DNA of 57,930 nt from the NCBI GenBank assembly GCA_029240195.1, contig JARBTN010000001.1, positions 1-57,930 of the forward strand. The letters run 5' to 3'. Source of the DNA: Chlamydiales bacterium (lineage in GTDB: Bacteria > Chlamydiota > Chlamydiia > Chlamydiales > JARBTN01). This document shows positions 6,927-49,698 of this stretch, piece by piece. Every line of letters starts with the position of its first letter. The stretch's first letter is position 1. The notes beneath the pieces are model-generated. The model was not told the DNA's origin and made no database searches. It saw only the letters and a list, made by a program, of their open reading frames with translations. The position numbers were made by a program, and so were the translations under genes.

Positions 6927-8108
6927 ATGGCAAAAGATAAGTTTGAGAGAACTAAACCGCACGTCAATATTGGAACCATTGGGCACGTCGACCATGGTAA
7001 AACCACATTGACAGCTGCAATCACTAAAACGCTTTCCGAAAGAGGACAAGCTAAGTTCCGTGATTATGCAGCCATCGACAGTTCTCCTGAAGAAAGAGAG
7101 CGCGGTATCACAATCAACGCAGCGCACGTCGAATACGAGACAAACGACCGCCACTATGCGCACGTTGACTGCCCCGGACACAAAGACTACATCAAAAACA
7201 TGATCACCGGCGCCGCTCAGATGGACGGAGCGATTCTTGTTGTGGCAGCGACCGACGGTCCTATGCCGCAAACTAGAGAACACGTTCTGCTCGCCCGTCA
7301 GGTGAACGTTCCAAGCATCGTCGTCTTCTTGAACAAAGTTGACATGATGGTTGGCGAAGAGGAATTGATCGACTTGGTCGAGATGGAAGTGACAGAGCTT
7401 TTGGAAGCGCAAGGCTTCAAAAACTGCCCCATCATCCGCGGCTCAGCTCTGAAAGCACTCGAAGGCGATCCTCAATACGTCGCTAGCATCGATGCTCTGA
7501 TGAAAGCTGTCGATGAGACAATCCCAACTCCACAAAGAGACATTGACAAACCATTCATGATGCCGATCGAAGACGTCTTCTCGATCAGCGGCCGTGGAAC
7601 TGTGGCAACAGGTCGTGTCGAGCGTGGCGTGGTCACATTGAACGCGAAAGCTCAGCTCGTCGGCCTCGGCGAGACAAAAGACACTGTTGTAACAGGCCTT
7701 GAGATGTTCAACAAAGTGCTCGATGAAGCGCGCGCTGGTGAAAACGTCGGACTCCTCCTCCGTGGCTTGGGTAAAGATGACATCCAAAGAGGGATGGTTC
7801 TCTGCGCTCCCAACACAGTGACTCCGCACACTAAGTTCAAAGGTACAATCTACGTTCTGACAAAAGAAGAGGGCGGTCGTCATAAGCCTTTCTTCAGCAA
7901 CTACCGTCCTCAGTTCTTCTTCCAGACGAACGACGTGACAGGTGTTGTGACATTGCCAGAAGGTGTTGAGATGGTCATGCCCGGCGACAACGTCGAGCTG
8001 ATTGTCGAGCTGATTGCACCAGTAGCGATGGAACTCAACCAAAGATTCGCGATTAGAGAAGGCGGCCGTACAATTGGCGCTGGAACAATCTCCGAGATCT
8101 TGAAGTAA
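6927..8108 (+). CDS. tuf: Elongation factor Tu
   Basis: 393 aa with [23 protein letters not shown] and NKVD GTPase motifs, full length. Confidence 0.98.
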
Positions 8109-8137
8109 TTTTAAAGAGAACCAAGACTCTTCTCTCT

Positions 8138-45486: not shown

Positions 45487-45737
45487 GTGAACCTGTTAAA
45501 AGAAAAAGCAGTGAACTATCTTTAAAAATAAATAATTTAATAGAAGGGATTATAAATGGGAAAATGGTTATTGAGCAATAGATTATTCTGAGAGTGTCTT
45601 GCAAGGGTGTTGAGGAACTGTAGCCAAATTTTGGGGGTCATATTCCCAAAATCTATCAAATTGACGGCATAGATATTCTCCTTTCTTTAAGGGGAGGAAA
45701 TGCCGTCAATTTGATGGGCTGCAAACTAGACGTTTTT

Positions 45738-45871
45738 ATAGCGGAACGCAACTCTTCGCGGGTCACACGCGTAACGCCTATCAGCGAATTAAGGTTTTTG
45801 CTGGAGGCAAAGGTGGGGGTGAGGGCTAAAGATAGCGTCTCTTTGAGAATGGCTTTAGTGCTGGTCTTGCC
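45738..45871 (-). pseudogene. Fragment of murF (copy of 48260..48400)
   Basis: About 134 nt align by eye with the intact murF segment at roughly four-fifths identity. For example, both copies contain ggcaaaggtggggg, agcgtctctttgagaat and gtgctggtcttgcc. The segment encodes GKTSTKAILKETLSLAL-like residues with no start and out of frame with the neighbouring ORF. Confidence 0.8.
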
Positions 45872-46110
45872 TCTCTAATTTTCTCCGGGCAACCACCTCC
45901 TGATCCAAATATCTCTGCATCTACGTATTTCTTAAACTGGGCAACATGCTCATCTACAATTTGATTTCTCCTATTAATATAATATCTAATAGGCTTACCA
46001 TCAAATATTGCCGGACTTCGAACTAAAGGCCCTTCTAGCGAGGCTCCTTGAAGAGCTCCAAGCTGAAAAACATAGCTCAAAATGATGCTGAGAAGGAACT
46101 TATTCTGCAT
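45826..46110 (-). CDS. Truncated/chimeric paralogue of 46132..46767 whose 3-prime end reads into the murF fragment
   Basis: Signal-like MQNKFLLSIILSYVFQLGALQG. GKPIRYYINRRNQIVDEHVAQFKKYVDAEIFGSGGGCPEKI is near-identical to the 211-aa neighbour. The out-of-frame murF-derived tail is REARPALKPFSKRRYL. Confidence 0.45.
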   Translation of the reverse strand: MQNKFLLSIILSYVFQLGALQGASLEGPLVRSPAIFDGKPIRYYINRRNQIVDEHVAQFKKYVDAEIFGSGGGCPEKIREARPALKPFSKRRYL

Positions 46111-46131: not shown

Positions 46132-46767
46132 TTACCATTGGAAACGCTCTCCTTCTTTGATGGGCTGGGTTAAATTGGGCTTTTTCTGTTCTAAAACCTT
46201 TAACACGTCTTCAATGGATGCCCTGTATACTTCTATCCCATCGAGGGGTGCTGAATTCACTTCGGCTTTGATTGAAGCGTAACATACTGTACAGCTAGTA
46301 ATCCTCTCTAAGCTTTCTTCTCCAGCAGGTGTGATATAAATTTGTCCTTTTTTATCAGCAAATAGGATTGAATAGAATAGATTGCCTGTTGTGAAAGGAT
46401 AATTATTAAGGCCTGGGCGTACAGTTTCATCTAGGTTCACGCGATAAAGTAAATCCTGGTATCCCTTAATAATCAATTCCTTAGCTTTTTCAATATCTAC
46501 AGGCCCTGGAGCCGTGACTATAAATGAAAGATGAATGTTTGTGATTTTCTCTGGGCAACCACCTCCTGATCCAAACACCTCTGCATCTACATATTTCTTA
46601 AACTGGGCAACATGTTCATCTACAATTTGATTTCTCCTATTGATGTAATACCTAATGGGTTTGCCTTCGATAATATTAGGTTTTCTTACGTATTCAGTCA
46701 TAAACCCCAGTTGATTAGATGCAATAAACAATAAAAAACAGTAAAAAATAAATGATTTTCTTTTCAT
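46132..46767 (-). CDS. Hypothetical secreted protein
   Basis: 211 aa with signal-like MKRKSFIFYCFLLFIASNQLG. No recognised family. Visibly AT-richer than the backbone. Confidence 0.55.
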   Translation of the reverse strand: MKRKSFIFYCFLLFIASNQLGFMTEYVRKPNIIEGKPIRYYINRRNQIVDEHVAQFKKYVDAEVFGSGGGCPEKITNIHLSFIVTAPGPVDIEKAKELIIKGYQDLLYRVNLDETVRPGLNNYPFTTGNLFYSILFADKKGQIYITPAGEESLERITSCTVCYASIKAEVNSAPLDGIEVYRASIEDVLKVLEQKKPNLTQPIKEGERFQW

Positions 46768-46805: not shown

Positions 46806-47174
46806 TTAATCGCACTGTGAATTTCCTTTGATCTTGCTACCATTTGGAGGACATTTAAGATTTGGATCTGACCTATCTACTATTTTGAGAAAAAAGCAAG
46901 CATAGTTCAAAGAGACTCCTCTACCAAAAGAGGATACAGGAGACCAATAGATACTTTTATGGTCATAGTACCTAATGAAGGAGAGGGGCTCGGGTCCAAG
47001 CACTTCTAAATCGACGAAGCTAGCAGTGTAGGCTCGATTAGCCAAATTGACATTTTCGTAAATGGAGCTCGGTTCGATGCCATACTCGCTAGAAAGGGGG
47101 GCCGGGTCGTCCTCTGCTTTCAGTGAGTTTAGGGTGATCATGAAGAGGGTGAATGCAAGGAAAACGTTCATCAA
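46806..47174 (-). CDS. Hypothetical small secreted protein. The N-terminal motif is reminiscent of the start of Rhs/YD-repeat proteins.
   Basis: Signal MMNVFLAFTLFMITLNSLKA. IYENVNLANRAYTASFVDLEVLGPEPLSFIRYYD resembles the v.v.tG.y....Dl...Gp.pl...R.Y motif that precedes Rhs repeat regions. The protein is only 122 aa, so at best it is a fragment. Confidence 0.4.
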   Translation of the reverse strand: MMNVFLAFTLFMITLNSLKAEDDPAPLSSEYGIEPSSIYENVNLANRAYTASFVDLEVLGPEPLSFIRYYDHKSIYWSPVSSFGRGVSLNYACFFLKIVDRSDPNLKCPPNGSKIKGNSQCD

Positions 47175-47327: not shown

Positions 47328-47373
47328 GCTTTTAGCTTTTGGGAGGCCGCGCCGCCTCCCAAAAGCTAAAAGC
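47328..47373 (-). terminator. 20-bp perfect stem hairpin overlapping the murF stop codon
   Basis: gcttttagcttttgggaggc-cgcgcc-gcctcccaaaagctaaaagc. On the minus strand it begins inside the last murF codons and includes the TAG stop. Confidence 0.55.
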
Positions 47374-48949
47374 CAGCCGGCTGTTCGTAGATGTCGGTCA
47401 GGTCGTTTTCGATGAGCCACGCATCTTCTTCTTGCCGCATGCGGCTGATGGCCTGAAAGGCCTCTTCGCGCGTTTGACAGAGGTGAATGCGCTCAGGTTC
47501 AAGCCCGCCTGCCAGCAACCCCTCTGAGAGGGCTTGGCGGTTTTCGGTGCCGACGAGAAAGACCTCATGGCAGATTTTGGCTGCCCTTTCACCAATCTCT
47601 TGATTGGCGATGAATTGCTTGTCGCCCAGTTCGATCATGCCGGGCGTCATGAGCAGGCGCCTTTTTGCAGGCAATTCGGCCAGCACCTCCAAAGCGGTGG
47701 CAAAGCCGGCGGGATTGGAGTTATAGGCATCTCGGATGAGCCAGCCAGACCCCTCGCGCAGCACTTGCAGCCGGTTGTCGACGGGCCTTAAAAGGGCAAA
47801 GCTGCGCATGACTAATTGGGGATCGGCGCCAAGAGCTACGGCCAAGGTGAAGCATGCGGCGCAGTTGAGCACAGCCCCTTTGCCAAAAAGGGGGGTGCGG
47901 CCGCTATAGTCTTGGCCCTGCCAGCGCAGGGTGAAATGGGAGCCGCGCTCGGAGAGCTGATAGGCGGTGATGTGGCAATCGAGGGGCTGGGAGGCGTCAA
48001 AGCCGTAGAGCAAGTTCAGGCGCTTGGGGTGGTCTTTAGAGATTTGGCGCGCTCCTGGGTTGTCGCCATTGCAGACTAAGATGCCGTCAGCGGGGAGCGC
48101 TTTGGCCAGTTCTGACTTGGCTTGAAAGACGTTCTCAGGAGAACCAAAGCGATCGAGGTGCATGTAGTCGACAGCGGTAATGATGGCCGCTTGAGGCGGC
48201 GTCAGCTTCGCCATTCTAGCGATAGAGCCGATGCGGTAGGCGCCCATCTCAAAGATGGCATAGCGGTGAGCGGAGCGCAGCTCTTCGCGAATCACACGCG
48301 TGACGCCCATCAGCGTGTTGATGCTCTTTTTAGGGGCAAAGGTGGGGGCGAGAGCTAAAGAGAGCGTCTCTTTGAGAATAGCTTTGGTGCTGGTCTTGCC
48401 AAAGCTGCCGGTGATGCCGATGATGTAGGGGTTTTTTTTCTGGATGATCTCTTGAGCCTCTTCTAAAAAGAGCGCTTGCTTTCTCTTTTCAAAGGGCCAG
48501 GTGCAGCGGTTGGAGAGGGCCAGCAGAAAGGGGAGGGTTTGCACAGCGATAGCTAAATCGAGCGGCAGGAGGGCGGGGAATTGGCACATGAGGGCATATG
48601 CCAGGATGACAAAGAGAAATAAGCTGACATAGAGCGTATTTTGCGCCCGCTCGGTCAGGTGCAGCCGGATTTTGCCGCTCTTTCTCGGGTCCTCTTCAAA
48701 GAGAGCTAGCAAAGAGATGCCAGAGAGAGCCCAAAATAGGGGATATGGCAGCCAATAAGCAATGAAGCAAACGGCAGATGCCCTGCGGTCAAAGCTCTTG
48801 GTGGCTAAGAGCCAGCGGATGAGGCGTATGGCTTCATAATCCTCTTGCTGCAAGATGCGCAAATAGCGCAGCTGCCTTCGATAAGCAAAGAAGAGGGAAA
48901 ACAGGATGAAAAGATAGTCGATCATAGAGCCGAAAGCTAAGGGTGTCAA
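47366..48949 (-). CDS. murF: MurF-type Mur ligase (UDP-MurNAc-tripeptide--D-Ala-D-Ala ligase family) with a polytopic membrane N-terminal domain
   Basis: IIGITGSFGKTSTKAIL P-loop, IFEMGA and IRDAYNSNPAGF (MurF DxYNxNP signature). The first approximately 150 aa are hydrophobic (YLFILFSLFFAY, FIAYWLPYPLFWALSGISLLALF, LYVSLFLFVILAYALMCQF, LAIAVQTLPFLLAL). The start is TTG 48949 (TTGA overlap with the hydrolase stop) or ATG 48925. Confidence 0.8.
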   Translation of the reverse strand: MTPLAFGSMIDYLFILFSLFFAYRRQLRYLRILQQEDYEAIRLIRWLLATKSFDRRASAVCFIAYWLPYPLFWALSGISLLALFEEDPRKSGKIRLHLTERAQNTLYVSLFLFVILAYALMCQFPALLPLDLAIAVQTLPFLLALSNRCTWPFEKRKQALFLEEAQEIIQKKNPYIIGITGSFGKTSTKAILKETLSLALAPTFAPKKSINTLMGVTRVIREELRSAHRYAIFEMGAYRIGSIARMAKLTPPQAAIITAVDYMHLDRFGSPENVFQAKSELAKALPADGILVCNGDNPGARQISKDHPKRLNLLYGFDASQPLDCHITAYQLSERGSHFTLRWQGQDYSGRTPLFGKGAVLNCAACFTLAVALGADPQLVMRSFALLRPVDNRLQVLREGSGWLIRDAYNSNPAGFATALEVLAELPAKRRLLMTPGMIELGDKQFIANQEIGERAAKICHEVFLVGTENRQALSEGLLAGGLEPERIHLCQTREEAFQAISRMRQEEDAWLIENDLTDIYEQPAGF

Positions 48950-49698
48950 GCATTTAAAAATTGGCGGATATGGTACGCGAGGAGGTGGGTGCTTAAATTG
49001 CCAAAGGGGTCGTGGCCCTGCCGCGGCAGTCTGATCAGCTGAGAGTGGGGCAAGAGGCGGTGCATCCTTTCAGCCATTTCATAAGGAGTCTCTTGATCCC
49101 TCTCTCCCCAAAGGAGAAGGGTGGGCGCTTGGATAGAGGGGAGAATGGGCTGCAAATCTTCATGGATGGTCTTGAGGAAGGTGCCTCTCATCTCATTCGC
49201 TTCGAGATAGTCTTTAGAGGCAAAACGGGGCACAAAATAATTGGCAAAGAGATGGGTGTGAAATGTCTGATCGACTATCTTTAGCGCCGCCCTTAAGCTA
49301 GAGAGCATTTTCCTCTGAGCCCGTCTTTTAAAGCTATGCTTTCTCTTCAATCCTGAGGCGCTCACTAAGATCAAGCGGCGCACCCGCTCTGGAAAGCGGC
49401 TAGCAAAGGAGAGGGCGACTTTGCCGCCAAAAGAGTGGCCAAATAAGTCGACTTGAGGTTGCTTAAGCCGGTCGAGATGCTCTTTTAAAGAGAGCGCGTA
49501 GTCAACAGAACTCCAAGGAACTGGGGGAGGGGGAGATTGACCAAAACCGGGCAAGTCGATGAGGTGGGGGGAGATGGGACTTTTGATGAGCTTGGCTAGC
49601 CCTTCTAAGCTCTCTAAAGAGCGGTTCCAGCCGTGCAACATGACTAAAGGAAATTGTCCTGTCAGGGATTGTCGAGAGTGCAGGAAAGCCGAATGCAT
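48946..49698 (-). CDS. Alpha/beta-fold hydrolase
   Basis: 250 aa. LVMLHGWNRS, nucleophile elbow FGHSFGG, a late GERD and a GHDPF histidine motif. Confidence 0.8.
   Translation of the reverse strand: MHSAFLHSRQSLTGQFPLVMLHGWNRSLESLEGLAKLIKSPISPHLIDLPGFGQSPPPPVPWSSVDYALSLKEHLDRLKQPQVDLFGHSFGGKVALSFASRFPERVRRLILVSASGLKRKHSFKRRAQRKMLSSLRAALKIVDQTFHTHLFANYFVPRFASKDYLEANEMRGTFLKTIHEDLQPILPSIQAPTLLLWGERDQETPYEMAERMHRLLPHSQLIRLPRQGHDPFGNLSTHLLAYHIRQFLNA

Follow-up and report, generated by a model that had tools for sequence, protein, structure and literature searches.

In a deep-branching environmental chlamydia, a decayed Rhs toxin/immunity locus ends in a probable dead rearrangement scar

A tandem duplication creates, at its join point, a novel joint that runs in direct orientation from a downstream point back to an upstream one. 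Rearrangement by template switching is the subject of the models of microhomology-mediated break-induced replication/fork stalling and template switching (MMBIR/FoSTeS; Hastings et al. 2009, PMC2621351). Homologous recombination between the tandem immunity paralogues esaG/tipC is documented (Garrett et al. 2022, PMC9484751); also documented are toxin/immunity modules found as orphans or remnants after rhs and cdi genes (Poole et al. 2011, PMC3150448; Zhang et al. 2012, PMC3482391). RHS-repeat polymorphic toxins have already been listed for chlamydiae (PMC3150448; PMC3482391).

Here we describe a short stretch of the window (the whole 57,930-nt piece of DNA analysed) that is, in our reading, probably a dead rearrangement scar ending a decayed Rhs toxin/immunity locus, reached by either of two routes. 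The host is a deep-branching uncultured chlamydia; the best database matches of the EF-Tu encoded in the window are 77-80% identical to it, and the named ones among these belong to Chlamydiae, Parachlamydiales, Simkania and Rubidus.

The stretch holds two short copies separated by six bases, both of which were recovered without gaps by a repeat search and by blastn of the scar region against the whole genome (2.13 Mb, 112 contigs). The copies, the genes that supplied them and the toxin remnant described below all lie on the minus strand. Block B2 (45878..46002) matches its source, block B1 (46544..46668), over 125 nt at 90.4% identity, with 12 mismatches and 0 gaps (E=1e-43). It copies, in frame, codons 34-75 of p211, an intact gene for a 211-aa signal-peptide protein at 46132..46767, and this source segment runs from helix 1 through strand 1 into the next turn. 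Block A2 (45740..45871) matches block A1 (48269..48400) over 132 nt at 84.1% identity, with 21 mismatches and 0 gaps (E=6e-35), and copies codons 184-227 of a Mur-ligase-family gene; the source segment begins in the P-loop (GKTSTK...). Beyond the two sources, the genome contains a single further match, a 75% paralogue on contig C6.

Each block keeps the orientation of its source. The order of the two is permuted compared with that of the sources, with B preceding A on the minus strand. Between them lies the filler TAGAGA (45872..45877), six bases that match neither source (three of the six agree with p211 and none with the ligase). The joint is thus distal-to-proximal and direct, passing from the end of B at 45878 across 6 nt to the start of A at 45871. 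The first-pass annotation had read 46005..45878 as a copy of the middle of the 211-aa gene and 45871..45738 as a copy of an internal ligase piece. Both copies are borne out, although its ends at 46005/46672 and 45738/48260 overshoot the alignments by 3-9 nt.

Across the joint runs a 94-aa chimeric ORF, p94 (45826..46110), which starts 21 nt past the p211 stop and has a GGAG Shine-Dalgarno motif 7 nt upstream. Its own 5′ end (46003..46110) encodes a signal-peptide-like N-terminus and a weak version of the family motif, VR.P.I..GKP. Within block B, p94 is read in the frame of the p211 family; block A is out of the ligase frame and contains the stop, at 45826. The resulting tail of 16 residues includes the unique peptide REARPALKPFSK. 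The ORF is present as first annotated, including the signal-peptide-like start and the out-of-frame, ligase-derived tail.

The gene context is that of an Rhs locus. Upstream of p211 lies a 122-aa ORF (46806..47174), residues 2-95 of which are 65% identical to residues 1-94 of the Rhs protein of contig C6 (E=1e-39), a region comprising the signal peptide and DUF6531. At the nucleotide level, the similarity to C6 begins 93 nt ahead of the gene and continues through its first ~270 nt. The C6 Rhs is intact (1895 aa), with a Sec signal, DUF6531, RHS repeats (RHS_repeat, E=5e-41), a DPHGL core end of the DPxGL type and then an unassigned C-terminal domain of ~325 aa; only the N-terminal 95 codons of such a gene are kept in the window. 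Measured against C6, the window's Rhs gene has lost ~5.4 kb and is left with its first ~95 codons. The segment 46768-46897, in which the remnant ORF ends (its last ~25 codons) and the 38-nt spacer to p211 follows, has no match in the C6 locus.

The intact locus on contig C6 (L001:7450-15669) carries several relatives of p211 directly after the Rhs gene. The first, C6_212, encodes 212 aa, is 67% identical to p211 and starts 28 nt past the Rhs stop; the next gene, of 219 aa, is 47% identical to p211. A 158-aa ORF follows, and after it a 241-aa p211 paralogue. Because a 53-residue stretch of the 158-aa ORF is 51% identical to the Rhs C-terminal domain, we regard this ORF as an orphan toxin fragment.

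An HMM built from four paralogues retrieved 1,625 proteins at E<=1e-3 from a set of 1.84 billion representative proteins. The majority are secreted and ~180 aa long, a protein sometimes containing 2-4 domains, and none carries a Pfam domain; Pfam likewise gave no match on p211, on p94 or on the C6 Rhs C-terminal domain. AF2 modelled p211 with confidence (pLDDT 92.3) as one compact alpha/beta domain, for which Foldseek found no PDB fold match at E<=0.001. We scored the Rhs adjacency of remote family members in metagenome contigs with enough upstream sequence. One member overlaps the Rhs stop (L019), another starts 3 nt past it (L025), and Rhs cores lie upstream of members in two further contigs (L027 and L028). 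This conserved position directly after Rhs genes, and thus synteny only, points to p211 and its relatives as a candidate immunity-like family. The label of secreted-protein gene given to p211 at first pass misses this link to Rhs genes. In L028, the last family match (8001-8132) spans no more than residues 88-131 and falls in no ORF of at least 100 aa; we read it as a further truncated immunity-like remnant ending an array.

The locus had no match in 40 GTDB relatives, all from other families of the same order. A search of genome contigs returned only ligases at <=33% identity, and a search of metagenome contigs gave no close relative of p211.

The source of block A is a 527-aa protein of the Mur-ligase family (47366..48949). 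It matches the Pfam domains Mur_ligase_M and Mur_ligase_C; its N-terminal ~150 aa are hydrophobic, with no Pfam match to a Mur N-domain, and the gene stands outside the dcw cluster, which sits at 33-42 kb. Its nearest homologues are ~50% identical (at most 51%), and the name MurF attached to them comes from automatic annotation only. We therefore do not retain the name murF used in the first-pass annotation, which would call for three domains, and predict a non-canonical Mur ligase with a membrane N-terminus.

The ligase gene has a GC content of 56% (GC3 68%) against 48.6% for the genome, and adjoins an alpha/beta hydrolase gene (48946-49698). Together the two genes form a GC-rich island (47366-49698), with 51-63% GC in 200-nt windows and 40-45% in the neighbourhood, and the nearest ligase homologues include proteins annotated from SAR324 and Bdellovibrionales. 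The GC-rich composition in AT-richer surroundings and the source of these homologues suggest that the island was acquired horizontally. A near-perfect, terminator-like palindrome with 23-nt arms (47328..47373) lies at the ligase stop codon and sets the GC-rich ligase gene apart from the Rhs islet, which is AT-rich.

A codon-aligned nucleotide comparison reveals p94 to be a mosaic. In its 5′ part, p94 and p211 are 40% identical, as against 70% between p211 and C6_212; in block B, p94 and p211 are 90% identical, as against 74% between p211 and C6_212. The identity profile switches sharply from 40% to 90% at 46002, an incongruence of the kind left by recombination between paralogues. Because of this split, and because p94 has an N-terminus and family motif of its own, its 5′ end appears to derive from a separate, older paralogue in which block B was later overwritten with p211 sequence.

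Downstream of the scar, on the minus strand, a palindromic hairpin (45655..45715; 16-nt arms at 45655-45670 and 45700-45715) has a predicted dG of -32 kcal/mol (z -4.9) and is followed by a U-run; it looks like the terminator of the operon. The palindrome, CATCAAATTGACGGCA(A/T)...(A/T)TGCCGTCAATTTGATG around a CT-rich loop, is common to the window (45655-45715) and to a contig from another chlamydial family (L003, G002:C36, 1501-1563). Half of it recurs on C98 (1646-1685), and single arms with up to 2 mismatches are found on C75 (twice) and C108. This shared element may serve as a conserved terminator or as a protein-binding site, or may be a small mobile element. We dropped an origin of the hairpin's 5′ arm by snap-back copying, as the palindrome is also present in the genome of another chlamydial family. 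Rfam returned nothing relevant, only sub-threshold miRNA-like hairpin matches, and a promoter scan gave no more matches than shuffled sequence.

No intact remnant of the older paralogue's 3′ end was found. A 12-nt match to the p211 3′ end at 45721-45710 (CAGCCCATCAAA, 'LQPIK') was considered as such a remnant and rejected, as it overlaps the palindrome found in the other family's genome. The match scored at P ~0.05 for the region, at 0.11 for residues 76-end and, in a different frame, at 0.004 for the last 25 aa, and we do not treat it as significant. The 100 nt beyond block A2 aligned to the ligase gene no better than shuffled sequences did (P=0.07).

Isolated fragment copies are also found elsewhere in this genome. 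At least eight others, of 70-310 nt and 83-98% identity, lie 1-4 kb from their parents, with flanks that show no similarity, and consist of gene ends or gene-internal pieces. They include C5:3963-4141/8204-8382, C93:13151-13329/15548-15727, C41:15674-15967/17067-17360, C28:16596-16903/20427-20735 and C108:3028-3124/4247-4344, with others on C58, C59 and C12. Because so many isolated copies lie near their parents, local duplication followed by deletion seems to have recurred, and remnants of local duplications seem to be common in this genome.

From these features we infer how the scar may have arisen. The ancestral locus would have comprised, in order, the Mur-ligase gene, a terminator, the Rhs toxin gene, p211, a second, older immunity-like paralogue and the terminator hairpin, with the Rhs gene later reduced to its first ~95 codons. 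Three breaks would account for the present arrangement. At the first, within the second paralogue, a homology-guided switch at 46002/46668 would have put p211 sequence (block B) in place of the paralogue's own. The second would be an illegitimate backward (duplication-type) joint from p211 codon ~75 to ligase codon 184, with the six filler bases, and the third a forward joint or deletion that follows ligase codon 227 and leads back to sequence just upstream of the terminator hairpin.

Either of two routes could have produced these breaks. In the stepwise route, a local tandem duplication would make the joint between B and A, unequal exchange between the tandem paralogues (or gene conversion) would graft this joint onto the 5′ end of the older paralogue, and a deletion would remove nearly all of the distal copy. 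In the other, a single replication or repair event would pass through three template switches. The absence of microhomology and the other isolated fragment copies near their parents fit the stepwise route; the similar synonymous divergence of the blocks (dS 0.46 for A and 0.60 for B), their similar lengths and the 6-nt filler fit the single event.

Taken by itself, a one-step, MMBIR/FoSTeS-like origin, with switches from the older paralogue to p211 by homology, back to the ligase gene and then onward to the paralogue's 3′ flank, so that two short patches are copied and the body of the paralogue is lost, is in our judgement possible but doubtful. The patches are near-equal in length, adjacent and in the same orientation, one event is more parsimonious than three, and complex patchwork joints have been described for template-switch models (PMC2621351). 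The agreement in dS, however, carries wide errors (pS 0.34 for A vs 0.41 for B, each +/- about 0.09). Moreover, the joint alignment reveals no microhomology at the joint between B and A or at the end of A2, where after ~16% divergence it may no longer be recognisable. The other fragment copies in the genome resemble ordinary duplication remnants at gene ends, and such a mechanism has not so far been shown in chlamydiae.

In the AF2 model, the part of the p211 domain that p94 keeps amounts to helix 38-60 and strand 62-70. Since a signal peptide, one helix and one strand are all that p94 keeps of a single-domain protein, with an out-of-frame tail added, we regard it as most likely a non-functional stub, probably still co-transcribed with p211.

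The substitutions in the two blocks bear on this point. In block A, dN/dS is 0.21 and its nine replacements are consistent with neutral decay of the copy (P=0.16); replacements in A2 fall on the near-invariant ligase positions P206, T212 and I220. In block B, dN/dS is 0.04, 12 of the 13 differences are at third codon positions, and a simple neutral-copy model is rejected (P=0.005). We polarised the block B differences with C6_212, a saturated outgroup. Six synonymous changes thereby fall on the p211 branch, whereas the p94 branch receives two synonymous changes (2-5 with ambiguous ones) and the two replacements, which are conservative (E>D, V>I); three changes are ambiguous. Strong coding constraint on p94, as the dN/dS of 0.04 taken at face value would indicate, was dropped because both replacements polarise to the p94 branch. 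For the same reason, the block B pattern argues weakly for constraint, although p94 could be, or could long have been, under it.

That p94 is instead a functional, selected small secreted protein, made up of signal peptide, helix, strand and a new basic tail, is in our view quite unlikely. Its ORF has stayed intact after a dS of ~0.5, with no indels in 257 nt; it has a good Shine-Dalgarno motif and a signal-peptide-like N-terminus and lies close after p211, and block B shows the low dN/dS and the rejected neutral-copy model given above. Against this, p94 keeps only two of ~11 secondary-structure elements of one compact domain, and the sample is 13 differences only. Both amino-acid changes, with few synonymous ones, on the p94 branch are compatible with relaxed constraint, and protein database searches found no homologue of the truncated form.

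The first-pass annotation had explained the stretch by a single tandem duplication of roughly 48400-46545, with the joint made in place and most of the second copy then deleted. Part of this account stands: the joint is backward and duplication-type, in direct orientation from distal to proximal as expected of a novel joint, and it unites true copies with compatible synonymous divergence. The literal model, however, predicts the order ligase, Rhs remnant and truncated p211, joined to the ligase 3′ part, Rhs remnant and complete p211, whereas the complete p211 is observed upstream of the joint. Nor does the sequence upstream continue the first copy, the 5′ end of the joint-bearing gene being 40% identical to p211 where block B is 90% identical, and the ligase similarity ends after 132 nt. 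This event alone therefore cannot yield the structure, and at least one additional homologous exchange with an older paralogue, or another mechanism such as serial template switching, is needed. We consider the literal model very improbable; the duplication keeps a place only where the stepwise route begins.

The scar is real sequence and not a mis-assembly, since the copies have diverged by 10-16% from their sources (33 differing positions) and the identical sequence is found in two other assemblies. A JGI metagenome contig (27 kb) is 100% identical to the window over the 10,676 nt compared, a Logan contig of SRR35179801 (919 nt) is 100% identical and spans both joints, and each encodes the exact 94-aa product. 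That the chimera is nonetheless an assembly artefact, or that both patches were recently imported from a diverged related strain, is least probable of all: the genome is a 112-contig draft of 88% completeness, the three assemblies may come from one sample, and a functional orthologue as donor would also give a low dN/dS in block B, but 33 differences are not those of collapsed repeats, the k-mer-based Logan contig and the JGI contig agree through both joints, the closest sequences among 5.8 billion proteins are 50% (ligase) and 67% (p211 family, from this same genome) identical, and A2 is altered at near-invariant residues, unlike a functional donor.

The scar, then, probably offers a clean and datable example (dS ~0.5) of the decay of a polymorphic-toxin locus in a deep-branching environmental chlamydia, in which the toxin gene has been gutted, one immunity-like gene kept, and a second reduced to a mosaic stub with a captured piece of the ligase gene nearby, itself probably of horizontal origin. 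It adds one more case to a known kind of genome decay and is not a new system. It also carries a warning for annotation, as neither the 94-aa 'secreted protein' nor the ligase-like fragment is likely to be a gene in its own right. Of wider use than the scar are the unannotated family that follows Rhs genes (~1,600 members, with a confident model and no PDB match) and the set of similar fragment copies elsewhere in the genome, which suggests that the process recurs in this lineage; neither alters the understanding of such loci. It is unlikely, by our estimate, that the stretch holds either a secreted peptide of 70 residues, newly made by the rearrangement from an immunity-like protein's first helix and strand and still under selection, or a preserved one-step event with three switches; if it did, this would be the first such case documented in a chlamydial genome.

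Compared with the orphan toxin/immunity modules known after rhs and cdi genes, the C6 locus follows the same plan, with a main Rhs gene, tandem immunity-like paralogues and toxin C-terminal fragments. The window locus keeps a 5′ remnant of the Rhs gene with one intact and one truncated immunity-like gene; its truncated gene ends in a piece of the Mur-ligase gene, which is unrelated and of housekeeping type, where in those modules the cap would be another toxin or immunity module. With recombination between esaG/tipC paralogues it shares mosaic identity between neighbouring paralogues and a sharp switch at a conserved block. In contrast to that system, p94 shows one exchange only, which goes together with an illegitimate joint to a gene that is not homologous, and the outcome is a truncated product and not a new full-length immunity gene. 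Like MMBIR/FoSTeS products, the scar combines short templated segments from nearby loci with a duplication-type joint and a deletion; its joints differ in having no visible microhomology and a 6-nt filler, and the event is old. Finally, as at classical tandem-duplication join points, a downstream point is linked to an upstream point in direct orientation, but here no two recognisable copies flank the joint, the distal copy is down to 132 nt, and the proximal side is grafted onto the 5′ end of another gene.
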